IMG/VR virus record: IMGVR_UViG_3300044712_002679
Location: 244,406 to 308,405 of that record
Length of the DNA: 64,000 bases
Strand: one strand, 5' to 3'
Origin: a virus
Shown one piece after another: positions 1 through 53,331 of this stretch (its first letter is position 1; every line of letters starts with the position of its first letter). The notes below the pieces were generated by a model. It saw only the letters and a program-made list of their open reading frames with translations, ran no database searches and was not told the DNA's origin. Both the position numbers and the translations under genes were made by a program.

Positions 1-2208
1 AAAATACAAGTAATTGAAGACATAAATGAAGATTTTATTTATATTGATCCTGAATTTATTTTGTTTGATGATTCTTTAATACCCTATATTAAAAATTTAT
101 ATAATTTTGATATATTAGTAAAACACACTAATCCAAAAGAACATTTTGGCCCACATCATTTTATTAATAATAATAAAAAGTTATTAAATGATATTAATAT
201 AAATACAGATTTATATGACGATAAATATTTTTGTACTGATATAATAGGCATGAATTTAAAATTTAAAGAAAAATATATTTCAAATGTCAAAAAAATTGAA
301 CAAGTAATAAAAAATAATATGATTAATGGAAATTATAAACATTACAACATTATATTAGATAATTTATTAATTTATTTAACTTATTTAAATAATAATCTTA
401 AAAGTTATGAATTTATTTCACCTGATGATATCGAATTGGGTATTAATTATTGTGCTGATAAATATAAATTTACAATATTTGAAACTAACAATAGCATAAC
501 ACAAAATATAAACCTTGTAAAAAATAAAATTCATAGAGATTTTCCTAATAATTTTATTAATATTGATAATTATGAAAACAATTATAAACCATATAATTAT
601 CATTTCAAATATAAATTGTCATTTTGTGTTTCGTGTATGAATAGGTTAGAATTTTTAAAAAAAACATTATTACACAATTTAAATTTAATTAATTCGTTAA
701 CTGAAACATATAATATTGAATTAGTGCTATTAAATTATAATAGTGAAGATGATATGGATGAATATTTGAATCAAGATATTTTTAAACAATTTATAGATGA
801 TAAAATTTTAATTTACAAAAAAGTTAATAATAAAGATTTTTTCCATAGAACAAATGCTAGAAATATAGCACATTTAGCTGCAACTGGTGATATATTATGT
901 AATTCGGATGTTGATTGTTATCTATCCGAAGAATTAATAAAAGAAACATATGATGCTTTCAATGAACACGGTTTAAATAATATAATTTTTTGTGGTTCAA
1001 CAAATTATAATTTTGGATATATTTGCTTGAGTAAATATAATTTTATTTTACTTGATGGTTATAATGAAAATATTTATTATTATGGTGCTGAAGATTATGA
1101 TATTTTAATAAGATTTTGTTTAAAAACAAAAAATAAAATTAAAATATTAGAAAAAGATTATTTGAATTTACTAATAAATCATAATGATTCTTTTAGATCA
1201 ATAACACAATATAATAAATGGACTACAAATTTTGTTAATTCTATACTAGTATATTACAATTTAAAAAACAATATAACTAATCCCAATAATGGCATTTTTG
1301 GTAAAGATGAACACATAAAAATTAAAGATGTATTCAATTATGATTATTTTAATAGGTATGTTTTAAATGATGACGAAATTACTAATATGTGGAATGATAT
1401 AAAAAGTATTAATAATGATAATTGGCTTAATCATATTATAATGAAAAAATTCAATAATTTTTTAGAAAACAATTGTTTAAATCATAAAATTATTGAAATT
1501 ACGACAATGGTTGGTTGTAAAAATATGTGTTTATATTGTCCACAAGATGCATTTTTGAAAAATTATAAAAGTGATGTAAAATATCTTACTGTTGATATTT
1601 GGAAAGATATTTTAAAAAATATAGATAAAAATGTAGAAATTCAATTTTCTGGATTTGCAGAAAATTTTATGAATCCTAATTTTCCATCTATATTAAAATA
1701 TACACATAAAAATGGATATAAAATAACAATATTTACTACATTAGAAGGTTATAATGAAAATATTGATTTATCTGATATTGAAATAAACAATTTATATTTT
1801 CATGAATATAACGGAAAAAGTTTTAATAGAAAAAAATTTTATTCTAATGTTGATAATTTTTTAGCAAATAATAAAATAATAAATTATCATGGCATTTTGA
1901 AAATTGGTCAACAAGAAGAATTCACTCGGGCTAATAATAACAAAAGAAAAAAAACTGAACATAAATTTGGTAAAATTAAATGTAATTTCGGTAAAGATTT
2001 TTTATGGCAACAAAACAATTTACTATTAAATGGTGATGTTTATATTTGTTGTCAAGATTGGGGGTTAAAACATAAAATTGGTAATTTAAAATCTGATAAT
2101 TTGTATTCTAATAATATAAATAATGAACGATTAAAATTACAAAATTTACAATTAATGGAAGATTCTGATATTATTTGTAGAGATTGTGAATTTTCAAAAA
2201 AAATATAA
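1..2208 (+). CDS. 5'-partial at the window edge. Bifunctional glycosyltransferase (GT2-like DxD region) fused to a C-terminal radical SAM domain.
   Basis: The reading frame is open from nt 1, and the ORF track starts at an internal TTG. 'NSDVDCY' is a DxD-like motif. 'GCKNMCLYCPQ' is the CxxxCxxC radical SAM cluster motif. Confidence 0.5.
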   Translation, partial: KIQVIEDINEDFIYIDPEFILFDDSLIPYIKNLYNFDILVKHTNPKEHFGPHHFINNNKKLLNDININTDLYDDKYFCTDIIGMNLKFKEKYISNVKKIEQVIKNNMINGNYKHYNIILDNLLIYLTYLNNNLKSYEFISPDDIELGINYCADKYKFTIFETNNSITQNINLVKNKIHRDFPNNFINIDNYENNYKPYNYHFKYKLSFCVSCMNRLEFLKKTLLHNLNLINSLTETYNIELVLLNYNSEDDMDEYLNQDIFKQFIDDKILIYKKVNNKDFFHRTNARNIAHLAATGDILCNSDVDCYLSEELIKETYDAFNEHGLNNIIFCGSTNYNFGYICLSKYNFILLDGYNENIYYYGAEDYDILIRFCLKTKNKIKILEKDYLNLLINHNDSFRSITQYNKWTTNFVNSILVYYNLKNNITNPNNGIFGKDEHIKIKDVFNYDYFNRYVLNDDEITNMWNDIKSINNDNWLNHIIMKKFNNFLENNCLNHKIIEITTMVGCKNMCLYCPQDAFLKNYKSDVKYLTVDIWKDILKNIDKNVEIQFSGFAENFMNPNFPSILKYTHKNGYKITIFTTLEGYNENIDLSDIEINNLYFHEYNGKSFNRKKFYSNVDNFLANNKIINYHGILKIGQQEEFTRANNNKRKKTEHKFGKIKCNFGKDFLWQQNNLLLNGDVYICCQDWGLKHKIGNLKSDNLYSNNINNERLKLQNLQLMEDSDIICRDCEFSKKI

Positions 2209-2210
2209 TT

Positions 2211-3128
2211 ATGATAACATCTATATTGCATCATGGATTAGGTAATAGATTATATCAAATAATCTATACTATTGAATTAGCTAAAAAATATAATATGAAT
2301 TATTTTTTTAGTGATTATTATACAGATAATATAGAACATAAATTTAATATTCATTATAAAGATAATATTTTTAAAAAATTGTCATTTAATTATGTAGATA
2401 AAATACCATATTTAGATAATAAATATATTTTTGATAAACATAAATTAAAACAAATTAAATCAGACTTTAAACTTAAAAAAGAAAAATTGATAAATATTGA
2501 AGATATTTTTAATTTACTAAATGATAATAATACAGTATTGAATAATGATGAAACATATGTTTTAAATTTTCCACACGACAACCCAAAATCATATTATATT
2601 GAATCTAAATATGTTGATAGATATTTTTATAACGATTTATTTATTGATAAACAAATATTAAATGATATAAAAATAAAATATAACAACAATTTTAAAAATT
2701 CTATATGTATATTAGTTAGAAGAAATGATTATTGTACAAATGAAGATTTGAAACCTAGAGTTAAAGATATACTATATTATTATAAAGGAATAAAAGAAAT
2801 AGAAAAAGAAAAACAAATTGATTATATTTATATCATATCAGATGATTTTAATTGGTGTAAAAAAAATTTAATAGATTCAAGAATAATTTATGTTGATGAT
2901 GTTGATTATAATCAATTTTATTTAGCAACATTATGTGAAAATTTTATAACTGTTGATTCAACATTTATATTTTGGCCAATTGTATTAAGTTTGAATGATA
3001 ATATAATTGTAGTAAGTGAAAAAGATTCTATACATTTTAGCTATAAAGATAAAAGTTGGAATAATGATCTAGTATGGTTTACAGATATTAAATCATTTAA
3101 AAATATATCAAAACATATAACAATATGA
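2211..3128 (+). CDS. GT11-like alpha-1,2-fucosyltransferase
   Basis: N-terminal 'HHGLGNRLYQIIYTIELAKKYN' matches fucosyltransferase motif I (G-L-G-N-Q/R-x-F/Y-Q). The start overlaps the upstream stop. Confidence 0.5.
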   Translation: MITSILHHGLGNRLYQIIYTIELAKKYNMNYFFSDYYTDNIEHKFNIHYKDNIFKKLSFNYVDKIPYLDNKYIFDKHKLKQIKSDFKLKKEKLINIEDIFNLLNDNNTVLNNDETYVLNFPHDNPKSYYIESKYVDRYFYNDLFIDKQILNDIKIKYNNNFKNSICILVRRNDYCTNEDLKPRVKDILYYYKGIKEIEKEKQIDYIYIISDDFNWCKKNLIDSRIIYVDDVDYNQFYLATLCENFITVDSTFIFWPIVLSLNDNIIVVSEKDSIHFSYKDKSWNNDLVWFTDIKSFKNISKHITI

Positions 3129-4168
3129 AAATAATAATAATTACTGGATCATTTGGATTAATTGGCAGTGAAGCTGTCAGTTTTTTTTCAAAAAAATTTG
3201 ATATTGTAATAGGTATTGATAACAATATGCGTGAATATTTCTTTGGAAAAGATGCTTCAGTTTTAAAAAATGAAAAATTATTGAAAGAAAAATATAATAA
3301 TTATATACATTTTAATACTGACATTAGAAATAAAATTGAATTAGAAAAAATATTTAAAGAATATAATACTGATATTAAATTGATAATACATACAGCAGCA
3401 CAACCATCGCATGATTGGGCTGTTAAAGAACCATTCACTGATTTTTCAATCAATGCAATAGGAACATTAAATTTATTAGAATTAACTAGACAATATTGTA
3501 CAAAATCTGTTTTTATTTATACTTCAACTAATAAAGTTTATGGTGATAATCCAAATTATTTACCATTAGTAGAATTACAAAATCGTTGGGAAATTGATTC
3601 AAAACATAAGTATAGTTTAAATGGTATTGACGAAACAATGTCAATAGATTATACAAAACATTCGTTGTTTGGTGTTTCTAAATTATCCGCAGATTTATTA
3701 TGCCAAGAATATGGTAAATATTTTAATATGAATGTTGGAATTTTTAGATGTGGTTGTTTAACTGGTGAAAATCATCAAGGTGTCCAATTACACGGATTTA
3801 TATCTTATTTTTTAAAATGTGCAATAAACAATCAAAAATATAATATTTATGGTTATAAAGGTAAACAAGTTAGAGACAATATACATAGTTTTGATTTAAT
3901 AACAGCATTTTGGCATTTTTATAATAATCCATTACTTGGTGAAGTTTTTAATATGGGTGGTGGTAGAAATAATAGTACATCAATATTAGAACTTATCGAA
4001 ATATTAAAAAATGATTTTAATATTAATATGAATTTTAATTATGTTGATATACCTAGAATTGGTGATCATATTTGGTATATTTCAGATTTTAATAAATTTC
4101 AATCAATTTATCCAAATTGGAAACTTACATATAATTTAAAAGATATTATAAAAAATATGATTAAATAA
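3125..4168 (+). CDS. NAD-dependent sugar epimerase/dehydratase (extended SDR)
   Basis: 'IITGSFGLIGSEAV' is a Rossmann GxxGxxG motif. 'YGVSKLSAD' is the YxxxK catalytic motif. Size is typical of GalE or CDP-sugar epimerases. Confidence 0.7.
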   Translation: MKIIIITGSFGLIGSEAVSFFSKKFDIVIGIDNNMREYFFGKDASVLKNEKLLKEKYNNYIHFNTDIRNKIELEKIFKEYNTDIKLIIHTAAQPSHDWAVKEPFTDFSINAIGTLNLLELTRQYCTKSVFIYTSTNKVYGDNPNYLPLVELQNRWEIDSKHKYSLNGIDETMSIDYTKHSLFGVSKLSADLLCQEYGKYFNMNVGIFRCGCLTGENHQGVQLHGFISYFLKCAINNQKYNIYGYKGKQVRDNIHSFDLITAFWHFYNNPLLGEVFNMGGGRNNSTSILELIEILKNDFNINMNFNYVDIPRIGDHIWYISDFNKFQSIYPNWKLTYNLKDIIKNMIK

Positions 4169-15361: not shown

Positions 15362-16246
15362 ATGAACATATTAAGTTTATTTGATGGGATGTCTTGTGGA
15401 CAAATCGCATTAAATCGAGTTGGAATTAAATATGATAAATATTTTGCATCTGAAATAGATGAAAATGGAATTCAAGTAACAATGGATAATTATCCAAACA
15501 CCACACAATTAGGTGATGTTACAAAAATAATTAGTTCAAATTTACCACAAATTGATCTTTTAATTGGTGGATCACCTTGTCAAGGGTTTTCTTTTGCTGG
15601 AAAACAATTAAATTTTAATGATCCTAGAAGTGTGTTATTTTTTGAATTTGTTCGGTTGAAGAATGAATGCAAACCTAAATATTTTCTTCTAGAAAATGTT
15701 AAAATGCGAAAAGATTTCCAAGATATTATAAGCGGTTATCTTGGTGTTGAACCAATTGAAATAAATAGTTCAACAGTTTCTGCCCAAGATCGAAAAAGAT
15801 TATATTGGACAAACATTCCAAATATTACACAACCAACAAACAAAAATATTTATCTTAAAGATGTTTTAGATATTTTTGTTGATGATAGCTTATTTTTATC
15901 TGATACAATAGCATCAAGGTATTTTACTGTGCCATGCACTATAAATAAAAATAAATCATGTGTTATTGGAAAATTGTCTAATCATCAGGGTGATAGAATA
16001 TTCGATATTAATTGTAAAGGTAGTTCACTAAGTGCTAGTGGTGGCAATAATGGTGCAGGTGGTTGTAATATTATACACGACCCAACTACAAATAAATTAA
16101 GAAAATTAAGTGTATCAGAATGTGAACGTTTACAAACTGTGCCTGAAAATTATACAAAATTAGCAAAAAAGACACAACGGTATAAAATGCTTGGCAATGG
16201 TTGGACAGTTGATGTTATTTCACATATATTTAAAAATATAATTTAA
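15362..16246 (+). CDS. DNA (cytosine-5)-methyltransferase
   Basis: N-terminal 'LSLFDGMSCG' is motif I (FxGxG). 'GGSPCQGFSFAGK' is the catalytic PCQ motif IV. 'ENV' is motif VI. C-terminal 'GNGWTV' is motif X. Confidence 0.85.
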   Translation: MNILSLFDGMSCGQIALNRVGIKYDKYFASEIDENGIQVTMDNYPNTTQLGDVTKIISSNLPQIDLLIGGSPCQGFSFAGKQLNFNDPRSVLFFEFVRLKNECKPKYFLLENVKMRKDFQDIISGYLGVEPIEINSSTVSAQDRKRLYWTNIPNITQPTNKNIYLKDVLDIFVDDSLFLSDTIASRYFTVPCTINKNKSCVIGKLSNHQGDRIFDINCKGSSLSASGGNNGAGGCNIIHDPTTNKLRKLSVSECERLQTVPENYTKLAKKTQRYKMLGNGWTVDVISHIFKNII

Positions 16247-17154
16247 TGAATGTATTAAGTCTCTTTGACGGAATGTCCTGTGGACAAATCGCACTAAATA
16301 GAATTGGTATCAAATATGATAAGTATTATGCATCAGAAATTGATAAACATGCTATTAATGTAACACAAACACATTTTCCAAATACGATACAATTGGGTGA
16401 TATTACACAAATCAAAAAATTAGATTTACCACAAATAGATTTAATGATGGGTGGATCACCATGTCAAGGTTTTTCGTTTTCTGGTAAACAATTAAATTTC
16501 AATGATCCAAGAAGTAAATTATTTTTTGAATTTGTTAGATTAAAAGATGAAATTAATCCTAAATATTGGTTATTGGAAAATGTAGTAATGAAAAAAGAAT
16601 ATGAAAATATCATTTCACAATATTTGGGTGTTGAACCAATAAAAATAAATAGTAGTTTAGTATCTGCACAAAATAGAGAAAGATTATATTGGTCAAATTT
16701 AAAAATAATTCAACCAACAGACAAAAACATAAATCTTGATGATATTTTAGAATATGATGATCAAATAAATCCTGGTGCTATTCGTGGACGAAAATTAAAC
16801 AAAGCTACAATTATTGGAAGACGATTAAATGATCGTGGTGTAAGAGATGATTATAATAAAGATATTCCTATTACACAATGTTTAGAAGTAAGGGCTACTA
16901 ACACCAATAAAAGTAATTGTCTAACAACCGTTGAAAAAGATAATGTATTAACTACAATGCCTATTGGAAGACATCCTGATGCGTTTATTAATAAATTACC
17001 ATTTAGATATTATACATTAAAAGAATACTGTAGATTACAAACCGTACCTGATGATTATTTTGATGGTATAGTATCAACAAATCAAGCAAAAAAAATGATT
17101 GGTAATGGTTGGACAGTTGATGTCATTGCACACATTTTGAAAAATATTAAATAA
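16246..17154 (+). CDS. DNA (cytosine-5)-methyltransferase, tandem paralogue of 15362-16246
   Basis: Motifs I, IV, VI and X are the same. The N-terminal half is about 75% identical. The target-recognition region differs. Its ATG overlaps the upstream stop (TAATG). Confidence 0.85.
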   Translation: MNVLSLFDGMSCGQIALNRIGIKYDKYYASEIDKHAINVTQTHFPNTIQLGDITQIKKLDLPQIDLMMGGSPCQGFSFSGKQLNFNDPRSKLFFEFVRLKDEINPKYWLLENVVMKKEYENIISQYLGVEPIKINSSLVSAQNRERLYWSNLKIIQPTDKNINLDDILEYDDQINPGAIRGRKLNKATIIGRRLNDRGVRDDYNKDIPITQCLEVRATNTNKSNCLTTVEKDNVLTTMPIGRHPDAFINKLPFRYYTLKEYCRLQTVPDDYFDGIVSTNQAKKMIGNGWTVDVIAHILKNIK

Positions 17155-17848: not shown

Positions 17849-18271
17849 TTATTTTAAAACTAAATTTAGAAGTCTTCCTAATGATAAATAAAAATGTGTG
17901 TTTATTTCAGAAAAATCAATCCATTTATAACCAACCACTTCAGGACACATATTTCCAAAATTATCAGTAAACATAGAATCACAATGTAATTTAGTCAAAT
18001 CTTCAATATTATAATAACACTTAAATAAATGTAAATTCTTTTTTGAATTATAATTGAAATGACCCAAATCTTCAATTTTTTCTTTACTTAAATTCAATCC
18101 AGTTTCTTCAAAAGTTTCTCGAATTGCTGCGTGATATGGAGTTTCATTAAGATTTAAACCACCCTTTGGAATATCGTAGCTAAGTTCATTTTCTTTTTTT
18201 CCATATGCTTTACAACCAAGTATCTTATTGTCTGAATTAATGATAATTATTCCACAACTAAGACTTTTCAT
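17849..18271 (-). CDS. Nudix hydrolase
   Basis: Nudix box 'GGLNLNETPYHAAIRETFEETGL' (GX5EX7REUXEEXGU). Confidence 0.8.
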   Translation of the reverse strand: MKSLSCGIIIINSDNKILGCKAYGKKENELSYDIPKGGLNLNETPYHAAIRETFEETGLNLSKEKIEDLGHFNYNSKKNLHLFKCYYNIEDLTKLHCDSMFTDNFGNMCPEVVGYKWIDFSEINTHFYLSLGRLLNLVLK

Positions 18272-18475: not shown

Positions 18476-19183
18476 TTATTTTATTTTATTTTTTAATTCG
18501 TTTGGTATAATTTTTTTATTCATCCAATGTTCATCTGTTGTTACGTGACCTGGACGTACAAATTTTGCAACAGATTTACCAAAATCTTTAAAATCAAATT
18601 CATTCGCAAGTCTTATAACATAACCTTCTTGTTTTTCAGTGTCAAATGTATAATTTCTTAAAAATTGTTCATCAAATATACCTCGCCAAATAATTGGCAC
18701 ATGGCATAATCCTAATAGATTACACCAATCAACAGTATCATCCCAAGATAAACATTTATTATTTTCATCCCATATCGAAAATACTTCAAAATATGATTCC
18801 AAGTTATTGTAGTGAATACTATGTTCTGCAAATAATCCTTCACCACAAATTCTCCACCCATCAGGAATTTCGTAATTAAATGTTGACCAAAATCCTTTTA
18901 ACCAATGTCTAGAAATATGATCAACACTATCTAATGAACGAGCATATATACAATCACGCATTAGATTTGAATTTTCACCATCACGTTTTTCTGTCATAAC
19001 AATTTCTTTTCCAATGAAATGATCAATGGATTTTAATATTTTGTCATCTGATTGGCAACCTTTAGACCAAGGAAAATGGTATGTACGTGGATATTTCACT
19101 TTCATAATTGTATATTTAGTCAATACAAAGATATTAATATTTTCATTAAAAACAAATTTAGCAAAAACATTTATGCTAGTCAT
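18476..19183 (-). CDS. ATP-dependent RNA ligase-like nucleotidyltransferase
   Basis: 'KYPRTYHF' N-terminal signature, and 'EKRDGEN' as ligase motif I (KxDG). The true start may be the internal Met at 19105. Confidence 0.4.
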   Translation of the reverse strand: MTSINVFAKFVFNENINIFVLTKYTIMKVKYPRTYHFPWSKGCQSDDKILKSIDHFIGKEIVMTEKRDGENSNLMRDCIYARSLDSVDHISRHWLKGFWSTFNYEIPDGWRICGEGLFAEHSIHYNNLESYFEVFSIWDENNKCLSWDDTVDWCNLLGLCHVPIIWRGIFDEQFLRNYTFDTEKQEGYVIRLANEFDFKDFGKSVAKFVRPGHVTTDEHWMNKKIIPNELKNKIK

Positions 19184-22888: not shown

Positions 22889-23246
22889 TTATTATATCCA
22901 TTATTTTTTTATAAATGTCTGAGCTATTATAAATAGAATCACTACTAAATGATCCATATTTCTTTTGATTATATGATTTTTTCAAATCTAACCAACATTC
23001 TTTTATATTAATTATACCATTAAGTAAAACAGATATTGGAAACATTATTGTATTTAATATTATCGCTAATGGATTATAAAAATTATGAAGTATAATTTGT
23101 TTATCATTATAATAATATTCATATCTATCAATCCATTTTATTTGTCTATGTTTAAATAATTGATTATGTACTTTTTTGGATAATTTGAATTTTTTATATC
23201 CATTATCCAAAGGGTTTTTATAAATATATTCAGTTTTAATCATCAT
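22863..23246 (-). CDS. hypothetical membrane-associated protein
   Basis: ORF with an internal hydrophobic segment. Confidence 0.3.
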   Translation of the reverse strand: MMIKTEYIYKNPLDNGYKKFKLSKKVHNQLFKHRQIKWIDRYEYYYNDKQIILHNFYNPLAIILNTIMFPISVLLNGIINIKECWLDLKKSYNQKKYGSFSSDSIYNSSDIYKKIMDIINEKRLERK

Positions 23247-23650
23247 AATAATTTTAAATGTCCTGTTATGGGGTTTATTTCTTCGGATTTAGCTGGACCG
23301 ATAGCAACACAAGTTTTTGTTGGTACACCATTAAATTCAGTTAATCCGGCATCGACAATCAATGAACAAGGCAAACCTTTATCTTTTGCTTGTTGATATA
23401 TATCCAATAGTTCTTGTTCACTATCACAACTAACAACAACCTTAGTAAATAACCCCCTTAACCATACTGACCAATTAGAATCATCATCTAAATAAAAAGT
23501 AAGATGACCTTCACTTGATGATATTCTTTGATATTCACACAAATCTAAAAATACTTTCATTGAGGCGTGGGCCGCCTGAGACATCGCCTTACCCTTACGA
23601 ACATTTAAGTCTTTTCGGAATATTATAACTTGTTTTACATTTTCATTCAT
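23243..23650 (-). CDS. pth2: peptidyl-tRNA hydrolase, PTH2 (archaeal/eukaryotic) type
   Basis: 'KQVIIFRKDLNVRKGKAMSQAAHAS...VAIGPA' aligns well with the Pth2 family. Size is 135 aa. Confidence 0.8.
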   Translation of the reverse strand: MNENVKQVIIFRKDLNVRKGKAMSQAAHASMKVFLDLCEYQRISSSEGHLTFYLDDDSNWSVWLRGLFTKVVVSCDSEQELLDIYQQAKDKGLPCSLIVDAGLTEFNGVPTKTCVAIGPAKSEEINPITGHLKLL

Positions 23651-24701: not shown

Positions 24702-24965
24702 TCATACATTTATATTATTTTTATGAAATATTTGATCAAAATTCAAATATTTATTTGCAGATATTATAAGATCATCTTTTAACATATTTTTTATATTATT
24801 TATATCAATAAATCTATTTTCTTTATCATATAAATATGTATTATAAAATGGTTTATTATCAATAATTGTCGAATATCTTATCATCGTTTTTGAACAATAT
24901 GGTGAATAATATTGTGTAATTTCATCATATTGAATTTCTGGGTATCTTTTTAAAATACCTATCAT
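24702..24965 (-). CDS. hypothetical protein
   Basis: ORF whose start overlaps the gmd stop (ATGA). Followed by a further ATGA-coupled 48-aa ORF at 24563-24705. Confidence 0.3.
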   Translation of the reverse strand: MIGILKRYPEIQYDEITQYYSPYCSKTMIRYSTIIDNKPFYNTYLYDKENRFIDINNIKNMLKDDLIISANKYLNFDQIFHKNNINV

Positions 24966-25993
24966 TAAGTTCCAATTAAACTTTTTCCACCAGTTTTTAA
25001 ATCGTGTTCCATCATAATCTTAACCAATTCTTTAAACTTCACCTTTGGTTCCCATCCTAAAATTGTACGAGCTTTTGTTGAATCACCAAGTAACAGATCT
25101 ACTTCAGATGGTCTAAAATATTTTGGATCAATTTCAATTACAACATTACCTGTATTCTTATCTATACCTTTTTCATCTACCCCACTTCCAACCCATTCGA
25201 TATCCATGTTAACATATTTACAAGCTTCTTCGATGAAATCTTTGACACTATACATTATCCCAGTAGAAAGTACAAAATCTTCTGGGGTGTCTTGTTGTAA
25301 CATTAACCACATACCATACACATAATCGGGAGAATATCCCCAATCTCTTTTTGAATATAAATTGCCTAATTTTAAAGTTTTTTGTTTTCCGTTTTTTATT
25401 TTTACTAATGCTTCAGTTACTTTCTTTGAAACAAAAGTAGACCCCCGACGTTCTGATTCATGATTAAACAATATTCCATTACTTATAAACATATCATATG
25501 ATTCTCTATAATTTTTACAAATATGGTAGGCGTAAAGTTTTGCCACACCATAAGGAGACTGTGGGTTAAATTGTGTTTTTTCAGTTTGTGGTATTTCTAA
25601 AACCTTTCCATATAATTCACTCGTACTAGCATTATAAATTTTAGATTTTAATTCCAATAAACGACAACTTTCGAGTACATTTAGGACACCTATTGCATCA
25701 ACTTGTGCAGTATATAATGGTTGTGTAAATGACACTTGAACGTGACTTTGTGCAGACAGAATATATATTTCATCAGGTTTAACTTTTAATAATATATTTT
25801 GAATAGACGATATATCAGTGATATCACCATAATATAAATGTATTTTATCATAAATATTTTCAAGTCTACCAGTGTTAAATGAACTACTTCTTCTAATCAT
25901 CCCATGTACATCATAATCTTTATCTAACAGTAATTCAGCAAGATAACTTCCATCTTGACCTGTAATTCCTAACAATAATGCTTTTTTCTTCAT
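24965..25993 (-). CDS. gmd: GDP-mannose 4,6-dehydratase
   Basis: '[42 protein letters not shown]' is nearly diagnostic for GMD. Full length is 342 aa. Confidence 0.9.
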
Positions 25994-26054: not shown

Positions 26055-26705
26055 TTAATATCCCTGATATAATTTCACGGAATCTTCGACCAAACTTTTA
26101 CCATCAATAATAGATTTGTCTATCATTCTGTTAATTGCTTGCACGTATTTCGGTCTTTTTTGTTTAAAACAAATATCTATTTTACGTTTTAGTGATGCTA
26201 ATTCTTCATCAGATGTTGCTAATCCACATGCATCCTCCAAATACCACATACGGCAATTTAATATTGCTAATTTTTCTATAACTTCACCAATATTATCAGT
26301 TTCAATTATATCATTTGGCATTTCTATATATTTAGATTTATTTAAAATGTTGTGAACTGTAGTTTTAATTATATCTTCAATTTTTTCACCAATATTTAAT
26401 TCATTATTTAAATATTGATGATAATCTTGTTCACCACCATCACCAACAATATTTTCAAATGATATAACATCTTTATCATCATATTCATAATCATTGAACC
26501 AATCACCAACAGAATCTTCTATATGTTTACAAAAATCGCCTACTGAATCATCATTATTTTCTTTTGGATTCGAATTATATTCATAATCATTGAACCAATC
26601 AAAATCTTCTTCCACCATACCAATATTTACGTTTCCGATTTTATAATTTATGTTCCAATTGCCACTTTCTCTGACACCACAATGTCCATTAATTTGATTT
26701 TCCAT
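26055..26705 (-). CDS. hypothetical protein with an internal 'DWFNDYEY' duplication
   Basis: ORF with a repeated acidic segment. Confidence 0.3.
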   Translation of the reverse strand: MENQINGHCGVRESGNWNINYKIGNVNIGMVEEDFDWFNDYEYNSNPKENNDDSVGDFCKHIEDSVGDWFNDYEYDDKDVISFENIVGDGGEQDYHQYLNNELNIGEKIEDIIKTTVHNILNKSKYIEMPNDIIETDNIGEVIEKLAILNCRMWYLEDACGLATSDEELASLKRKIDICFKQKRPKYVQAINRMIDKSIIDGKSLVEDSVKLYQGY

Positions 26706-26719
26706 ATTATTCTTTTTTG

Positions 26720-26977
26720 TTAATATCCTTGTATTTTTTCGATAAGATTTAAAATTGAATACAATTGAACATCTATATCATCTAAATTATGATATTCAGA
26801 TTGTCTTTGAATAGAAATATCTTGTATACAATCTGTTACTTTACTATGAATTATCGCTAATAATCCTGACAAATTATATATATCATCATCTTTACCAAAG
26901 ATAATATCATCAAAATTTAGTTCAGTATTTATTTTAACTTTTGCTTTCATAGCCTTTTTCATTATATAGTTGTTCAA
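26720..26977 (-). CDS. hypothetical small protein
   Basis: ORF only. Confidence 0.25.
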   Translation of the reverse strand: MNNYIMKKAMKAKVKINTELNFDDIIFGKDDDIYNLSGLLAIIHSKVTDCIQDISIQRQSEYHNLDDIDVQLYSILNLIEKIQGY

Positions 26978-27362
26978 ATATTAATTGTTTAAATTTAGTT
27001 GAACTCCAACCATGATTTCTATTTATATAAATTATTTTAATATTTAGATCACCACCATTAATTTCTTTACCAATATAATCATCACCTAAAAATCTAACAT
27101 TAGGCTTAATTTTTTTTAATAATTTATATAGTTCTTTTTCAGTAGTATAACAAACAATTTCATCAATATACTTTATAGATTCCAATATTTTTATTCTTTC
27201 ATCAACAGATAATATTGGTTTGATTTTTTCTGGTCTATCAATAGTTGGATCTGTTTGCAAAAGAACAATCAATTTATCACAATTATTTTTAGCTTCTTCA
27301 AACATATAAATATAACCTGGATGAATTATGTCGAAGCAACCAGCAAGAATACCCATTTTCAT
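26934..27362 (-). CDS. cytidylyltransferase-fold nucleotidyltransferase, HldE domain II / RfaE2-like heptose-1-phosphate adenylyltransferase
   Basis: 'GILAGCFDIIHPGYIYMFEEAK...LIVLLQTD...VDERIKILESIKYIDEIV' matches the HIGH-motif pattern (G.FD..H.GH) and layout of the HldC/HldE C-terminal domain. Confidence 0.6.
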   Translation of the reverse strand: MKMGILAGCFDIIHPGYIYMFEEAKNNCDKLIVLLQTDPTIDRPEKIKPILSVDERIKILESIKYIDEIVCYTTEKELYKLLKKIKPNVRFLGDDYIGKEINGGDLNIKIIYINRNHGWSSTKFKQLIFEQLYNEKGYESKS

Positions 27363-27862: not shown

Positions 27863-30457
27863 TTACATATTTTTATTTACGATATCACATATATACATAA
27901 TATCCATACCTGTTAAATCTGGGTTATTAGGTACATATAGACCATACTTATCTACAATATCAGCAAAATCAAATGATTGTTTACCATATTTTTTTATCCA
28001 ATATGGTTGGTTTCCAATTGATCCACAGACTAATGGTCTACAATCAACACCACCATCATCTAATGCTTTTGCAATTTGTTTAATATTCGGATGAATTATA
28101 GGATATGCAAAATTTGCGATTTTACAATGTTCAAAATCTTTAATCTTCCAATAATCATTTTTGATAAATTCTTGATATAATTCATAATTCCATTGTCTAA
28201 ATATACAATTTTTTTCAATTCTGTCCAATTGATGTATTCCAATAAATGCTTGCAAATCAGTTGATCTTAAATTGAATCCTGGATAATAAAATGTATATAA
28301 ATCTTTAAAGTCATCAACATCAAATCCTTCTTTTAATTTTGATTTAAAAGGTTCATCTAAATCACGATCCCAACCATGTGCTCTTATACTTTTAAGAATA
28401 CAATACAAATCATAATCATCAGTACAGACCATCCCACCTTCTATTGTTGAATTATGTAAACATATAGGTTGCCAACCACCAACAAAATTTTCTGTATTTG
28501 GAACACAAAAATCATAAACATATTCATCATTACTATTTATTGTTTCTTTTGATCTAACACACAATAACATTAAATCATTATCGACGAATTTTTTTAATTT
28601 ATCATTATTTAAATATTCAGACTTAAACAATTTAATAAAATCACAACATTTATATGATACGTTATTTTTATTTCTTTTGGAAAATCTTTCAATTTTAAAT
28701 GTTAATTTTTTGTATGGTAATGTATTTTTTATATCAGAAACGATTATTGAATTATCTGATATTTCTACATTAGATATAATGAATTTATATTGTATTTTAT
28801 TATTTGTTTTTCTACCACATATCATTCTATTATTTTCTTTAGATTCAATAATAGAACCATTTAATCCTAACATATTAAATAAATATGAAATTTCATTTAT
28901 TAAATTTTTTGATACACTTGATACCGAAATTCTATTATCATCTACATTTGTGCCATCGCCAGCAAAATAACCATATAAAAATGATGATATATTTTCGTAA
29001 TTTGAATGAAATATAAATTTTGGTATTTGTTTATTTGATGCTCCAGATTTTATATTCAAAAAATCTCTAAAAAATATTAATAAAGTTTCAGATGATATGC
29101 AAATTGCATGGCTATGTTTATCTTCAACAATATCATCATATGATTCTAAATTAAATATTTTTTTTATAATATTTTTTACATCCTTAATATATTCAATTTC
29201 ATTTATATTAAATGAAAAACATAATCCACTTTTTTTGTATGATCCTTCGGCTAAAAAATAACCAATCAATCGACATAAATCTTCTGAAACTTCATATTTA
29301 ATTGGAATATATTTATATTTAGGTGTGTTTTTTTTAGCAATTTTTAAATTATCAGTTTCTGTTATCAAATATTCCAAGGGTAAAACCTTTCTTCTTTTCC
29401 AATTATCTTTGTTTTTATTATCTTTACTATTCCATTTGAACTTTATTTTATCTAAATCAGATTCGTTATGGTTTATTGTAAAATATGTATTTTCAGTTTT
29501 TTTACAAAAATCTAAAAAATTTAATTCTGTTATGGGGTTTGGTTGTGGAATTTTAGATGGTACTACAATATAATCACCAATATTAATATCATTTCCTTTT
29601 TTTGGTATAATGTTAAAATTTTTTGGATCATAAGAAAAAACACTATGATCTTCGGTAATTTCAACATATCTACCATTTGATAATTTTATTTTAAAAACTA
29701 TTTTGTTGTTTAGTTCGTGTTTTATTATATTTGAAGGTGATTTATATTGTGTATTATAATCATCATCGAATGTTATTATTTTTATTTTATTTACATCATA
29801 TTGATATTTATTATAGATATTTTTAATATTATCTATATTAAAAATATCATTTTCATCTAAATATGGTATTGGTGTATTAGATGACACTGACATATGATGA
29901 CCATAATAAAAGGAAAAAGAACTCATTAGACCAAATGATCCTGTTTTAATATCATTATAAAAAGAACCAATACTTTCACATGAATCTTCTAATAAAATAA
30001 TGTTATTTTGTTCACATATTTCTAAAATTTCTTTCATTTTATTAGGAAATCCTAATACGTGAACTAACATTATAACAGAAGGTTTGTGTTCTTTCACAAG
30101 TTTTTTTAGGTGATCAATATCTAATCCTAATGTTTCTTTATCACATTCACAAAGAATTGGATTAAGCCCCAATTGAATAATTGGTGAAACTGTTGTAGTC
30201 CATGACACCGCAGGAACGATTATATTTTTATTTATTAGTCTATCAGACATCAATAAACTATAAATCATTGCTAGATTTGCAGATGAACCAGAATTAAGAA
30301 AAACTGAATATTTTTTATTTTGATATTTAGAATATTTTTCTTCAAATTCTACAGTAAGCTTATTTTTAGTTAAAATAGGATTCGTTTTTAACCATTCTAT
30401 TAAAAGGTTTATATCATTTGCGTCAATTGTGTCTTTAACTAATTTAATTCGTTCCAT
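27863..30457 (-). CDS. DegT/ColD-type PLP-dependent sugar 3-dehydratase/aminotransferase, interrupted by an intein that encodes a LAGLIDADG homing endonuclease
   Basis: N-extein has the DegT fold ('...GSFGLMSSFSFYYGHHM'). C-extein is 'STIEGGMVCTDD...RAHGWDRD...GFNLRSTDLQAFIGIHQL'. The intein has block B 'EITEDHSVFS', two LAGLIDADG motifs ('LIGYFLAEGSY', 'LYGYFAGDGTN'), block G 'VYDFCVPNTENFVGGWQPICLHN' and Ser at +1. The conserved PLP lysine position reads His (verified on the DNA), as in ColD and E1 dehydratases. Confidence 0.75.
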   Translation of the reverse strand: MERIKLVKDTIDANDINLLIEWLKTNPILTKNKLTVEFEEKYSKYQNKKYSVFLNSGSSANLAMIYSLLMSDRLINKNIIVPAVSWTTTVSPIIQLGLNPILCECDKETLGLDIDHLKKLVKEHKPSVIMLVHVLGFPNKMKEILEICEQNNIILLEDSCESIGSFYNDIKTGSFGLMSSFSFYYGHHMSVSSNTPIPYLDENDIFNIDNIKNIYNKYQYDVNKIKIITFDDDYNTQYKSPSNIIKHELNNKIVFKIKLSNGRYVEITEDHSVFSYDPKNFNIIPKKGNDINIGDYIVVPSKIPQPNPITELNFLDFCKKTENTYFTINHNESDLDKIKFKWNSKDNKNKDNWKRRKVLPLEYLITETDNLKIAKKNTPKYKYIPIKYEVSEDLCRLIGYFLAEGSYKKSGLCFSFNINEIEYIKDVKNIIKKIFNLESYDDIVEDKHSHAICISSETLLIFFRDFLNIKSGASNKQIPKFIFHSNYENISSFLYGYFAGDGTNVDDNRISVSSVSKNLINEISYLFNMLGLNGSIIESKENNRMICGRKTNNKIQYKFIISNVEISDNSIIVSDIKNTLPYKKLTFKIERFSKRNKNNVSYKCCDFIKLFKSEYLNNDKLKKFVDNDLMLLCVRSKETINSNDEYVYDFCVPNTENFVGGWQPICLHNSTIEGGMVCTDDYDLYCILKSIRAHGWDRDLDEPFKSKLKEGFDVDDFKDLYTFYYPGFNLRSTDLQAFIGIHQLDRIEKNCIFRQWNYELYQEFIKNDYWKIKDFEHCKIANFAYPIIHPNIKQIAKALDDGGVDCRPLVCGSIGNQPYWIKKYGKQSFDFADIVDKYGLYVPNNPDLTGMDIMYICDIVNKNM

Positions 30458-30462
30458 TTATA

Positions 30463-31308
30463 TTATATTGTTTTTAAAATATTATTAATATTGTTTATAA
30501 TACTATTATTTTCGAATACATTATACCAATATTGCTTTGCTTGACAATTATTATCAGCTATATATTTACTTTCACGTTCCTTATATGAAAAACCAATTAA
30601 TATTTTATTTTCATTTTCCATATTATCACTGATGTGTGTAAAACAAAATGGACCAGATGCTCTACCAATAATAACATCAGTTTTTGTTGATATATAAGAA
30701 ATTTCCAATAAATTTTTGTTAAATCCCAAAATATTATCAACATTAATAATATTATCTTTTATTAAAAAAATATCATTTGTCATAATAAAAATAATATTCG
30801 GATATATATTTGATAAATTGTCTATTATTGGATAAAAATTAAAATTTTCGGATTGACCTGACCACACATTATTATTACAAACTAATACATATTTTTTATT
30901 TGGTTGAATAAAATTGTCAATATTTTGTGTTTCCACTTTTTCAAAATCAACTTTTGGAATATAATATTTAATCGGATTTATTTTAAGATTAAGTTGATCA
31001 TAAATATCACAAAAAACATTATAATTTGCATTTAAATTACAACCAGTTTCATTTAAATATTTGGCTTGTTGTTGACCAACCCATGTATTAATATACAAAT
31101 CATCACCAATCTGTATTACAGATACATCATTTTTTGGTGTTGGTTTTCTAATTTGTTCAATATCAATATCTTTTAATATAGAAAAATCATTACTGTGAAT
31201 ATAGTAATGATTTTTACCAATTTTACTTTTTATATCTTTGATAAATTCTTTTGAATAAAAAACATCACCGTTGTGATAATTGTTAAAAAAATAAACATTT
31301 TCAATCAT
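30463..31308 (-). CDS. paralogue of the N-terminal domain of 4161-5774
   Basis: 'MIENVYFFNNYHNGDVFYSKEFIKDIKSK...VIQIGDDLYINTWVGQQ' is about 70% identical over 280 aa. Confidence 0.45.
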   Translation of the reverse strand: MIENVYFFNNYHNGDVFYSKEFIKDIKSKIGKNHYYIHSNDFSILKDIDIEQIRKPTPKNDVSVIQIGDDLYINTWVGQQQAKYLNETGCNLNANYNVFCDIYDQLNLKINPIKYYIPKVDFEKVETQNIDNFIQPNKKYVLVCNNNVWSGQSENFNFYPIIDNLSNIYPNIIFIMTNDIFLIKDNIINVDNILGFNKNLLEISYISTKTDVIIGRASGPFCFTHISDNMENENKILIGFSYKERESKYIADNNCQAKQYWYNVFENNSIINNINNILKTI

Positions 31309-32744: not shown

Positions 32745-33977
32745 TTATATTTTTTTTATTGTACTTAGAATTTCAAATGCTTTATCCGCAGCATTTTTCC
32801 AAGTAAATTCTTTTCTTATTATTTCAGAATCAATTAAAGCTTTACCTTTATATTTCCAATAATTTATATAAACATCTTTCATAACTTTAGATAAATCATC
32901 AAAATCTGGTTCATAATAATTTCCAACCATATTTGGTATTGGTTTTTCGCCAATTATTTTAACTGGATGTCCTTTACCTTGTGCAAATTCTAATTGCCCA
33001 CTACAATTTGAATAAATTGATGGTGTTCCACACGCCATAGATTCACAAAGTGGAAGTCCCCACCCTTCTGATCTTGAACAAGAAAGATATACATGACCAT
33101 TTTTTAAATAATTTATATAATCATCTTGACTTAAAAAATGTACAATTTTGATTCTATTATCATTAAACCCGAAATGCTTTAATCTATTTTCTGTTGTTAC
33201 TAATCCATCATTTAAAAATTCGTTGTCAACGGATATTATTAAATCAACTGGATCATCATTATTAAAAGTTTTTAAGAAAGTTTCAATAATTTCTTTAGTT
33301 GCTTTTCGATATTCCCATCGACCAAACATTATAAATTTAAATCTATTATCTTTATATGCATCTATATTGTAATTAAAATAAGATGGATTAAAAATAGTTT
33401 CATCAATAGCTTCAGGTACAACAAAAACCTTTTCGGGTGAATAACCTTGTTCTATTATACATTGTTTTTGCCATTCGGATGGACACCAAAATTGATCATA
33501 TTTTTTAAGTAATTCAAAAAAATTATGATCATATTTAGTTGATTCCCAAACATTATACGCTATTTTAATTCCTTTATATTTATCTAAACAATGATAATAA
33601 TGATGATTAGTTTCACTTAGTATAATATCAATTATGTCTTCTTGTTTATATTTATTCAAATATTCAAGACCATCATTAATTTCGCTATCGAAAATGTTAG
33701 CACCATATTTACATGGGTCATTTTCATCACAGTATAACGTTTGTTGACATATTAAATTTCTTTGATAATCTGTTAAATATTTTTCTCCTTTATGTGGATC
33801 ATTATATCGACCATTTGAATTTTTTTGTCCTAATCCGAACCAACTTTTTCCAACTGTAAAATTTTTAATTTTTAAATCTACTAATTGACTTAATGCTGTA
33901 AAAAAATTTCTAGCGTGGGCATTATATCCTGTATGTCCAATAAAACTTGTATGTCCTTTAATAAAAAAATCAGTCAT
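32745..33977 (-). CDS. GT4-family (GT-B) glycosyltransferase
   Basis: 'YLSCSRSEGWGLPLCESMACGTPSIYSN' matches the GT4 'E-G-F-G-L-P-x-L-E-A-M-A-C-G-T-P' motif. Confidence 0.8.
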   Translation of the reverse strand: MTDFFIKGHTSFIGHTGYNAHARNFFTALSQLVDLKIKNFTVGKSWFGLGQKNSNGRYNDPHKGEKYLTDYQRNLICQQTLYCDENDPCKYGANIFDSEINDGLEYLNKYKQEDIIDIILSETNHHYYHCLDKYKGIKIAYNVWESTKYDHNFFELLKKYDQFWCPSEWQKQCIIEQGYSPEKVFVVPEAIDETIFNPSYFNYNIDAYKDNRFKFIMFGRWEYRKATKEIIETFLKTFNNDDPVDLIISVDNEFLNDGLVTTENRLKHFGFNDNRIKIVHFLSQDDYINYLKNGHVYLSCSRSEGWGLPLCESMACGTPSIYSNCSGQLEFAQGKGHPVKIIGEKPIPNMVGNYYEPDFDDLSKVMKDVYINYWKYKGKALIDSEIIRKEFTWKNAADKAFEILSTIKKI

Positions 33978-35289: not shown

Positions 35290-35880
35290 TTGATGGAAAA
35301 ATTTACACAAATAAAAGATACACCAATCATACCAGAAGATGAAGTTCTATTTAATGGTAATCATCTTGATATTATTAAATATAAAGATACTGAAATTTTA
35401 CAAACAAAAGATAAAGTTGCAATTCTTCCATATTTTAGAGATGAAGCGACATTTTTAATGCGATTGGAATATACACCAGCTTATATGTATAAAAATCGTG
35501 GTACAAATCTTAGGAATATTACAAATTATTTAACTGTTATTACTGGTGGTATAGATGAAGGTGAAACCCCGGAACAAACGATTAGACGTGAATTATATGA
35601 AGAAGGTGGTATTGTATTAAATAGTATGTTTCAATTTGATGTTCAAGGTCCATATTTTACAGATAAATTTGGCACATCCCAAATTTGGATTTGTTTTTTA
35701 GAATTACCAGTAAACACTTATCGCCAAGTTAAACCACCTACTGATGGTTCTAAACATGAAGAATTATCAAAATGTATTAGGGTTTCTATTGGTGATATTA
35801 ACCAAATAGTTAATAACGATTTATTGAGTAAATATTTAATTGATAAATTAATCAATAGAATAGCACAAGGATCAAGATGA
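35290..35880 (+). CDS. Nudix hydrolase (ADP-ribose/NDP-sugar pyrophosphatase-like)
   Basis: Nudix box 'TGGIDEGETPEQTIRRELYEEGG'. Confidence 0.75.
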   Translation: MMEKFTQIKDTPIIPEDEVLFNGNHLDIIKYKDTEILQTKDKVAILPYFRDEATFLMRLEYTPAYMYKNRGTNLRNITNYLTVITGGIDEGETPEQTIRRELYEEGGIVLNSMFQFDVQGPYFTDKFGTSQIWICFLELPVNTYRQVKPPTDGSKHEELSKCIRVSIGDINQIVNNDLLSKYLIDKLINRIAQGSR

Positions 35881-52307: not shown

Positions 52308-52741
52308 AATTTATTTTTTCTACAAAGATACAAATAATTATTCATTAAATCAATAATTTCTTGTGCTATTATTTCATCTAAGTAAAAATCAGATTCAATT
52401 TCATTTGTTTCTAAATTGGTTATGGTAATAAGATCATTAGTTAATTTCATTTCTACTATTGGATGTGGATGGACTATAACAGAAGAATATTTTTCAGTAG
52501 ATTCAATTTTTAAATTATTGATAATATTTCTAATAGTGGTTAATTCTTGTGAACAAAAAAATTTTTCTTTTTCACAGTCGCTATCACCTAAACCGTGTTC
52601 ATTTAGTTGTGAAATTTTATATTTTAATTGTATTATTCTATCAAATAGTACATCTAAGGTATAATTCATTATTTCTTTATATAATGATTCCTCACGAATT
52701 AATCCACCTTCAATTTGATCTTGCATTTGTTGTTCTATCAT
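52298..52741 (-). CDS. hypothetical protein
   Basis: ORF only. Confidence 0.3.
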   Translation of the reverse strand: MIEQQMQDQIEGGLIREESLYKEIMNYTLDVLFDRIIQLKYKISQLNEHGLGDSDCEKEKFFCSQELTTIRNIINNLKIESTEKYSSVIVHPHPIVEMKLTNDLITITNLETNEIESDFYLDEIIAQEIIDLMNNYLYLCRKNKLWI

Positions 52742-53331
52742 CTAGTAGATAAACTTAGATATTTATCACTTATAAAGAATTGTGTAATAGAATAAAATAT
52801 AGCTTTTTTAATTACATCATTATGATTAAATGCCCAATCATATTCAGAATTATTTATATTTTCAATATTTAACCACTTAACCCATTCAGTTTCTGACGAC
52901 TTATATGTTTCTATTTCAATCGGAAAATTATCTTTTGAAAAATCAAAAATTGAAAGAAAAACAAATGATACATTTTGCCTATTGTTAGAAGGATCATCAT
53001 TCATTTTTACAAATTTTGTATTGTCGTTAATTAAGGACTTTTCAAATTCTGGTAAATATAATGATGTTTCTTCAAAAACTTCCCGAACCATACATTCATA
53101 TAATGTTTCATCGAAATCCAAATATCCGCATGGTAAACAATTTTTACCTGGTTCATCTACCATAGATTCTGATCGTTTACTAATTAAAACGTATATGTTA
53201 TCATCACATTTAGCAAGTACTACACCTACTGTTGCAATTGATCTAGATAACCATACACTTTCGCCATCCGTTGTAATAACATTGCGATTATGTGTATTTT
53301 TAAATATTGGATTTTTAAATTTTTGTGTCAT
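52738..53331 (-). CDS. Nudix hydrolase
   Basis: Nudix box 'CGYLDFDETLYECMVREVFEETSL'. Confidence 0.7.
   Translation of the reverse strand: MTQKFKNPIFKNTHNRNVITTDGESVWLSRSIATVGVVLAKCDDNIYVLISKRSESMVDEPGKNCLPCGYLDFDETLYECMVREVFEETSLYLPEFEKSLINDNTKFVKMNDDPSNNRQNVSFVFLSIFDFSKDNFPIEIETYKSSETEWVKWLNIENINNSEYDWAFNHNDVIKKAIFYSITQFFISDKYLSLSTR

Follow-up and report, generated by a model that had tools for sequence, protein, structure and literature searches.

A HIGH-fold nucleotidyltransferase of a huge AT-rich bacteriophage with a possible role in heptose activation

The 64,000-nucleotide window analysed here (positions 244,406 to 308,405 of IMG/VR virus record IMGVR_UViG_3300044712_002679) contains, on its minus strand at 26934-27362, an open reading frame (ORF) for a small nucleotidyltransferase (NT) set in a cluster of sugar genes and, 20 kb away, a gene for a sedoheptulose-7-phosphate isomerase, GmhA. 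Our preferred interpretation, to which we give about an even chance, is that the NT activates heptose-1-phosphate to a nucleoside diphosphate (NDP)-heptose in a phage glycan pathway of a hybrid type, pairing a GHMP-family kinase with a HIGH-fold NT. A sequence-only reading of the window had taken the two genes for pieces of the ADP-heptose pathway. Comparator loci are designated below by L-numbers.

The 142-residue NT begins MKMGILAGCFDIIHPGY and carries GCFDIIHPGY at residues 8-17, followed by the motifs TDPTIDRPEKIKP and RNHGWSSTKFK. It matches the Pfam family CTP_transf_like (PF01467; 56.7 bits, E = 3.8e-15, cut-off 21), has more than 1000 database homologs (identity up to 92%) and shows a dN/dS of 0.10 against a 90%-identical relative. 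These observations exclude a chance ORF and establish a genuine gene under purifying selection. The AlphaFold2 (AF2) model (pLDDT 87.3) reaches TM scores of 0.7-0.9 to solved HIGH-type NTs, and the fold is shown to be that of the HIGH superfamily (class-I-synthetase-like, cytidylyltransferase-fold). The first claim of the sequence-only reading, a HIGH-fold protein with this motif lying inside a sugar cluster, is thus confirmed, as the same strand carries genes for a GDP-mannose 4,6-dehydratase-type enzyme (GMD), a DegT-family aminotransferase and a GT4-family glycosyltransferase (GT).

The catalytic signature of the NT reads HPGY in place of the canonical HxGH, which is HAGH in HldE and HRGH in HldC. 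This variant is not decay: the tyrosine is kept in 120 of the 120 nearest homologs and in all 28 members of the sub-clade to which the window NT belongs. More distant family members, from phage Cr30 and from Vibrio and Acinetobacter phages, retain HxGH. The family is further marked by the motifs (S/T)DP(S/T)(I/L)(D/E)RPEK.KP and R.HGWS(T/S)TK. A natural change of histidine to tyrosine in such a signature is a ready question for enzymology.

The case for a heptose substrate comes from the genes that accompany relatives of this NT. Beyond the window NT's own group of 88-92% identity, two of its nearest relatives lie beside a kinase and an isomerase of the SIS family. Locus L100 (NT 66% identical) encodes a small HAD protein (75 bits to a purpose-built HAD profile), with GHMP kinase, SIS isomerase and NT in this order and a GT2 gene after them. 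In locus L099 (NT domain 65% identical), GHMP kinase and SIS genes come before a HAD::NT fusion, and GT25, GT10, methyltransferase and GT61 genes lie on the flanks. The HAD::NT fusion is also present in L015, L064, L066, L075 and L080, and in cyanophage SynMITS9220M01, where the fused NT is of the HPGY type and lies downstream of a GHMP kinase, between GmhA and a short-chain dehydrogenase/reductase (SDR) annotated as a heptose epimerase. All fused members of the window NT's sub-clade are found in kinase-SIS-(HAD) contexts, and this sub-clade, in which every member has HPGY, holds nearly all loci with GmhA, a kinase or a HAD gene within 10 kb. The 595-kb phage LR756511 encodes a 458-residue GHMP-kinase::NT fusion (L098 19029-20405; LR756511.1 108799-110175), accompanied by GT11 and SDR genes, which has the domain order of HldE with a different kinase fold; a full-length HldE-like gene is found elsewhere in the same phage, at 358059-359384. 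Caulobacter phage Cr30 encodes GmhA along with a GHMP kinase, a GT and an SDR; its NT gene is about 5 kb off, on the far side of the genome ends. L012, in which GmhA overlaps the start of the NT gene, further encodes a GHMP kinase, a HAD domain, acetyltransferases and GTs. A fusion of another kind, NT::cupin, is found in an Acinetobacter phage.

The kinases of these relatives have HddA, the heptose-7-phosphate kinase, as their best NCBIfam model (91-133 bits, cut-off 600), with fucokinase and galactokinase next, and the Joint Genome Institute (JGI) names them D-glycero-alpha-D-manno-heptose-7-phosphate kinase. No NT of the RmlA, HddC or ManC type was detected in the window or in the part of the ORFs scanned in the L012, L027, L038, L098, L099 and L100 clusters. 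This leaves the small NT as the sole candidate for the activating step.

The immediate neighbours of the window NT belong to a recurring module. GMD is encoded on the strand of the NT and 941 bp downstream of it, in a position that matches in locus L088 (NT 90% identical), where the order is DegT, two small ORFs, NT, two ORFs and GMD. The DegT gene lies upstream of the NT; it contains an intein in the window, whereas its ortholog in L088 (818-1978) is intein-free and encodes 386 residues. A GMD-like gene and a DegT gene are also near the NT in L012 (GMD-like protein 47% identical) and in LR756511 (48%). As the three genes are co-localised in three separate lineages (window/L088, L012 and LR756511), the NT, a GMD-type dehydratase and DegT form a recurring module.

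The GmhA gene of the window encodes 192 residues. The protein scores 209.0 bits against TIGR00441, 0.45 bits below the cut-off of 209.45 (the DiaA model gives 127.9 bits), and 94.3 bits against the SIS_2 domain. It aligns end to end with the GmhA family (TIGR00441; PDB 2xbl, 2i22): residues 4-190 align with Burkholderia pseudomallei GmhA (2xbl) at 182 bits, and the aligned motifs GNGGSAADAQH..E, STSGNS and RIQEAH..GH are kept, with the metal-binding and catalytic residues and the phosphate-binding loops. The catalytic residues of GmhA we take to be H, E, Q and H. Identity is 67-72% to GmhAs named in bacterial and archaeal metagenome-assembled genomes and 74-76% to those of the syntenic phage contigs L102-L104, one of which comes from the same sample as L088. 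The lineage has thus retained GmhA as well as the NT. The GC content at third codon positions (GC3 = 0.098) is in line with the phage composition. The GmhA gene is of bacterial type and compositionally ameliorated; what sets it apart from the rest of its family is that it is phage-borne, ameliorated and without an adjoining heptose gene. The near-canonical isomerase announced 20 kb from the NT was therefore correctly recognised. It is a separate bacterial-type gene and not the SIS gene found in operons with relatives of the NT.

How would these genes work together? The NT most likely catalyses the reaction NTP + sugar-1-phosphate -> NDP-sugar + pyrophosphate (PPi), and the most probable sugar is D-glycero-D-manno-heptose-1-phosphate, which for the window's own enzyme we infer. 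GmhA would convert host sedoheptulose-7-phosphate to heptose-7-phosphate, from which an anomeric kinase and a 7-phosphatase would produce heptose-1-phosphate, ready for activation by the NT. The GMD-type 4,6-dehydratase and DegT may then modify the NDP-sugar or, alternatively, may follow a parallel route on host GDP-mannose, and glycosyltransferases of the GT4, GT11 and GT2 types would pass the products to an acceptor, presumably of the phage or the host; the GT4 enzyme is a likely consumer of activated sugar. As to the nucleotide, the HIGH fold suggests ADP or CDP, whereas GDP would fit an HddA-type kinase and dehydratases of the GMD type. GDP-heptose 4,6-dehydratases exist, and the GMD-type dehydratases near the NT could by analogy act on GDP-heptose.

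The pathway steps between GmhA and the NT were sought in the window and in about 10 kb on each side (about 84 kb in total, with flanks L094 on the left and L093 on the right). Pfam found no PfkB or GHMP kinase, HAD phosphatase or NTP_transferase in the window; local GHMP, PfkB and HAD profiles gave no accepted match there, and tblastn queried with proteins from Cr30 and from cyanophage found nothing in it. An ORF at 39706-40101 (-) matched the small-HAD profile (E = 1.3e-4). It was rejected as a hidden phosphatase: it has none of the DxDGT, TARG and DDK motifs, and the match is compositional. The sequence-only reading, which had recognised neither kinase nor phosphatase, was accurate on this point for the window and the flanking 10 kb. 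These two steps are either encoded elsewhere in the genome of about 0.5 Mb, beyond the 84 kb scanned, or supplied by the host.

Several observations weigh against a heptose role for the window NT. Neither a kinase nor a HAD phosphatase, and in particular no adjacent HddA-like GHMP kinase with a small HAD, is present in the 84 kb, and no ortholog of the L100 kinase with at least 60% identity was found on a 501,337-bp contig carrying the window's GmhA, among the best 120 matches listed. The kinase-SIS pair does not adjoin the NT in the window or in L088. A divergent SIS gene of the operon type was not found next to the window NT; the sole SIS gene is GmhA, which is not orthologous to the SIS genes of the kinase-SIS-NT operons: these score 58 bits against TIGR00441, and those of L099 and L100 are 28-30% identical to it. 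The functional link between NT and GmhA is thus inferred across 20 kb, GmhA lying among unrelated small hypothetical ORFs. The second histidine of the NT signature is replaced by tyrosine, and no curated equivalog cut-off is reached by the protein, whose best NCBIfam model is rfaE_dom_II (TIGR02199; 75.6 bits, cut-off 181.5). Among characterised enzymes, glycerol-3-phosphate cytidylyltransferase is slightly nearer to it than HldC by sequence, profile, tree and predicted structure. In a census of 80 IMG/VR loci (10 kb on either side of the NT gene), GmhA, a kinase or a HAD gene was present in only 5 to 8. Other family members lie in cassettes of RmlD-like, NT, GalE-like and dTDP-glucose-4,6-dehydratase genes, inside replication modules or, in a marine clade of 67% identity, between two GT7 genes, after which come radical-SAM/SPASM and methyltransferase genes. 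In view of these varied contexts, the NT family may serve more than one substrate or sugar.

Among characterised enzymes, the NCBIfam scores leave the NT ambiguous between rfaE_dom_II and the glycerol-3-phosphate cytidylyltransferase model g3p_cytidyltrns (TIGR01518; 68 bits, cut-off 165.4), and the whole-HldE model NF008454 gives 61.6 bits for a cut-off of 521. In a phmmer search of solved structures, the TagD/TarD entries 1coz and 2b7l came on top, with 51 bits for TagD and 23.6 for HldC. The family profile gives 91.5 bits for ECT (two domains), 76 for TagD, 70 for TarD, 48.7 for the archaeal 3glv and 47.4 for HldC. Foldseek places TarD/TagD first (rmsd 2.2 A, TMq 0.72-0.77, 28-32% identity), with HldC (5xf2) behind (rmsd 3.1-3.4 A, TMq 0.68-0.75, 21% identity, probability 1.00). 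We also built a neighbour-joining (NJ) tree with 200 bootstraps from 136 columns, a short alignment with few references, including 80 viral family members, phage references, domain II of E. coli HldE, B. pseudomallei HldC, TagD, TarD and 3glv; the E. coli HldE sequence was entered by hand and checked against Salmonella RfaE (93.6% match) and HldC (142 bits). The phage NT family is monophyletic in this tree (93% bootstrap) and groups with TagD/TarD (65%). A wider group of the family, TagD and the cyanophage NTs has 75.5% bootstrap, with HldE and HldC outside; family and cyanophage NTs alone are monophyletic in 3.5% of replicates, and family, cyanophage NTs and HldE together in 0%. Family members were seen only in phage and uncultured-virus sequences in this analysis. 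One 90%-identical NT is filed at NCBI under 'Candidatus Dojkabacteria', probably phage DNA that was mis-binned.

An NT acting on another sugar-1-phosphate, such as hexose-1-phosphate or mannose-1-phosphate, and feeding GMD or RmlB-type 4,6-dehydratases with GmhA functionally unrelated, is in our opinion unlikely, although several contexts of the family speak for it. The commonest neighbour in the census is an SDR (30 of the 80 loci, within 1.5 kb in 22, always on the same strand), and these SDRs include dTDP-glucose 4,6-dehydratase equivalogs (372-404 bits, cut-off 365) as well as GalE-like and RmlD-like proteins. The cassettes with RmlB-type dehydratases, as in L027 and L038, have no SIS gene, kinase or RmlA-type NT, and in the window's own lineage the NT-GMD-DegT synteny is kept with neither kinase nor SIS gene adjacent. 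On the other hand, the cassettes of RmlB type are found in another sub-clade than that of the window NT, whose fused members, like L099 and L100, are found with kinase and SIS genes. Moreover, no HIGH-fold enzyme is known to activate hexose-1-phosphates. We had also considered HldD for the SDRs adjacent to NTs and rejected it, as they score 119-126 bits for a cut-off of 274.6 and better as GalE-like (159-167 bits).

Other settings of the family are recorded here for completeness. The RmlD-like/NT/GalE-like/dTDP-glucose-4,6-dehydratase cassettes (L027 9139-12282, L038 9139-11400) are located inside replication modules with gp32, RNase H and primase genes. In the marine T4-like phages of L008, L010, L021, L039 and L059 (for example L010 7605-11331), the NT gene separates the two halves of a split family-B DNA polymerase (PolB) and adjoins a DUF6165 gene. 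At seven other loci it is part of a conserved gene block bounded by PolB and the clamp loader; the block also includes three genes lacking annotation and a weak GT-B match. A DNA-modification role, based on a guess that the ORFs flanking the NT in seven loci were QueD-like or TGT-like, was dropped when Pfam gave nothing.

Is the NT then a true enzyme of the HldC or HldE-domain-II type, with an ADP-heptose function? We find this decidedly unlikely. The match to HldE domain II that had been claimed stands in so far as rfaE_dom_II is the top NCBIfam model; it does not extend to orthology, the score being far under the cut-off and TagD/TarD nearer. The two share the HIGH/cytidylyltransferase fold, their size and a probable heptose-1-phosphate substrate; a canonical GmhA is present in the window, and some records label family members HldE. 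The cyanomyophages also have small NTs beside PfkB kinases and SIS genes. Against this, the window NT has HPGY and not HxGH, HldC is weaker than TagD by both structure and sequence, and HldE and HldC stay outside the group of family, TagD and cyanophage NTs. The partner of HldE/HldC is a PfkB kinase, while relatives of the window NT are paired or fused with GHMP, HddA-like kinases, the LR756511 fusion copying only the domain order of HldE; that this phage has both an HldE-like gene and a family NT argues that the two are non-redundant. The adjacent SDRs, finally, miss the HldD cut-off. Of the ADP-heptose pathway, a nucleotide-heptose role is retained as the most likely one, whereas, with GHMP and not PfkB kinases as partners in the relatives, ADP and the beta-anomer are not established. 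Grouping with glycerol-3-phosphate cytidylyltransferases had been named in advance as the outcome that would speak against the heptose assignment, and this grouping is literally what we observed. It is not decisive, because the tree also places on the TagD side those cyanomyophage NTs that directly adjoin a PfkB kinase and a SIS gene, so the substrate is not settled by resemblance to TagD.

Lastly, a cytidylyltransferase for glycerol-3-phosphate or a similar small phospho-alcohol, making CDP-glycerol for glycerophosphate decoration of glycans, has in its favour that TagD/TarD (TIGR01518; PDB 1coz, 2b7l) are the closest characterised relatives, of about 130 residues and with a similar C-terminal R-x-x-G-x-S-T-T-K motif, that a K-x-K element aligns near TagD K44/K46 (residues whose roles we presume) and that JGI and several phage records name the family so, but it is very improbable given the score of 68 bits for a cut-off of 165.4, the 28-32% identity, the lack of any TagF/TagB-type glycerophosphotransferase in Pfam scans of the window or related loci, and the sugar-type HAD fusion, GHMP sugar kinase fusion and SIS operons, which point to sugar phosphates and would have no role there.

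The heptose interpretation compares with several known systems. The GDP-D-glycero-alpha-D-manno-heptose pathway proceeds through GmhA, HddA, GmhB and HddC (Kneidinger et al. 2001, cited in PMC7378029). In relatives of the window NT, one operon similarly combines a SIS isomerase with an HddA-like GHMP kinase and a HAD phosphatase, and GMD-type dehydratases are encoded nearby. They differ in that their kinases fall below the HddA cut-off, their HAD is a minimal domain of about 110 residues, and a small HIGH-fold NT stands in the place of the HddC guanylyltransferase, which has the RmlA/GlmU fold. The cyanomyophage cluster T4-GC 304-306 (P-SSM2, S-CAM1, S-T4) consists of a small NT, a PfkB-like kinase and a short SIS protein. 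Like the window family, these are split heptose-type genes carried by phages beside glycan and tail-fibre genes, with NTs about 38% identical to that of the window; unlike it, they form a different clade with HPGH, the motifs DSDRK..MKG..RP and a PfkB-type kinase. The phage NDP-arabinose pathway for arabinosylated cytosine DNA uses an arabinose-5-phosphate isomerase, an AfhF-type HAD and an AfhE NT::kinase (PMC13326640). It resembles the systems described here in its succession of SIS isomerase, kinase, HAD and NT, then GT, in being phage-encoded and in its fused kinase and NT. It is an analogue and not a homologue: its NT has the MurU/RmlA fold, its isomerase is of the KdsD type and its target is DNA. 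We accordingly rejected an arabinosyl-DNA pathway for the window genes, whose SIS protein is clearly GmhA.

The partial carriage of heptose genes by a virus had been presented as notable, but such genes have been annotated in phages before: as NT, PfkB and SIS clusters in P-SSM2, S-CAM1 and S-T4, in Cr30, and in the genome announcement of SynMITS9220M01 (PMC7378029). Annotations of 'rfaE' in pelagimyophages (PMC7029224) and of 'TagD' in S-SCSM2R (PMC12801897) are also on record. The searchable literature yielded no experiments on this NT family, on its fusions or on the HPGY motif. The novelty is that of a known pathway in variant form, carried by a family of phage enzymes that is widespread and uncharacterised. 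The result specific to the window is modest: its GmhA is ordinary, annotations of phage heptose genes go back to the first cyanomyophage genomes, and the completeness of the pathway is not demonstrable.

If the heptose interpretation is right, many marine and freshwater phages, huge ones included, are equipped to make an activated heptose or a related sugar by a route of their own, with an enzyme set that mixes two bacterial routes, taking the GHMP kinase from the GDP-heptose route and the HIGH-fold transferase from the ADP-heptose route. A very common phage gene, now labelled variously TagD, RfaE or 'cytidylyltransferase-like', would then have an assigned function, and there would be an indication of which sugars phages place on virions or host envelopes. 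A further, tentative proposal, which as a whole we hold to be rather doubtful, is that the HPGY clade consists of phage-specific HIGH-fold sugar-1-phosphate NTs that have displaced enzymes of the RmlA/HddC fold, thereby creating a third, hybrid route to nucleotide-heptose (SIS, HddA-type GHMP kinase, mini-HAD and HIGH-fold NT). Its product could be GDP- or CDP-alpha-heptose, which GMD and DegT might convert to 6-deoxy-4-amino-heptoses for glycans of the virion or host surface, and the phage of the window may have rebuilt the route around a newly acquired bacterial GmhA.

The source genome is that of a huge tailed T4-like bacteriophage, very AT-rich, and a eukaryotic giant virus is ruled out. 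This follows from the GC content of the window (24%), the T4-type markers (Phage_30_3 and NUMOD homing endonucleases in the window, gp32 just beyond its edge) and the 100% identity of the window GmhA to a protein on the 501,337-bp contig. Phage records gave no nucleotide-level match to the window. As the virus is a huge bacteriophage, the role of ADP-heptose as an innate-immune signal, which had also been raised, has little relevance here.

Table 1. The NT, GmhA and the sugar-related genes of the window, with adjoining ORFs
Feature	Position	Strand	Basis or remarks
Second sugar block	61..4168	+	Pfam
GT2::radical-SAM/SPASM fusion, C-terminal part in window	61-2208	+	Full ORF 803 aa, L094 7587-9998
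GT11 fucosyltransferase-family GT	2211-3128	+	Pfam
SDR epimerase/dehydratase	3125-4168	+	Pfam
GMD, GDP-mannose 4,6-dehydratase-type SDR	24965..25993	-	TIGR01472 492.6 bits, cut-off 415
Protein of unknown function, 216 aa, between NT and GMD	26055..26705	-	62% identical ortholog at the same place in L088
NT, HIGH superfamily (cytidylyltransferase-like), 142 aa, ATG start	26934..27362	-	PF01467, NCBIfam, AF2 model, Foldseek, tree
DegT/DnrJ/EryC1 sugar aminotransferase with intein and LAGLIDADG homing endonuclease	27863..30457	-	DegT 185.8, Intein_splicing 62.2, LAGLIDADG_3 43.5, Hom_end 25.5 bits
Protein of unknown function, 281 aa, upstream of DegT	30463..31308	-	74% identical ortholog beside DegT in L088; no Pfam match
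GT4-family glycosyltransferase	32745..33977	-	Pfam Glycos_transf_1 52.5 bits, Glyco_trans_1_4 42.5 bits
GmhA, sedoheptulose-7-phosphate isomerase, bacterial type, 192 aa	46891..47469	+	TIGR00441, 2xbl alignment

The sugar genes of the window are distributed in two groups (Table 1), and a further pair of GT2-type genes is located immediately left of the window. The fusion of GT2 and radical-SAM/SPASM domains in that block may be compared with the marine clade of 67% NT identity (L089-L092), where separate GT7 and radical-SAM/SPASM genes flank the NT. The 216-residue ORF between NT and GMD has no Pfam or NCBIfam match; a link with DUF6165 was dropped, since the similarity to the DUF6165 genes beside marine-phage NTs was marginal (E = 0.017). 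The 281-residue protein upstream of DegT shares a paralogous segment of about 270 residues with the product of 4161-5774 (-), and the same L088 protein is matched by the two at 74% and 67%.

Other genes of the window are of more general interest. An 813-residue protein (40166-42607, +) contains major-vault-protein domains (PF11978 MVP_shoulder and, weakly, PF17795 Vault_3), which is unusual in a phage. Two C5-cytosine DNA methyltransferase genes, for proteins of 294 and 302 residues, are found in tandem at 15362-17154 (+). Genes connected with ADP-ribose and nucleotides are concentrated in and beside the window: three NUDIX hydrolases and a Macro domain protein are encoded at 17849-18271, 35290-35880, 52738-53331 and 61678-62277, and a CYTH protein and an ADP-ribosylglycohydrolase just to the right of the window (L093 4207-4683 and 8542-9333). 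We also observed genes for an RNA ligase (18476-19183, -), a PTH2 peptidyl-tRNA hydrolase (23243-23650, -) and a CDF-family cation efflux transporter (43121-43999, +).

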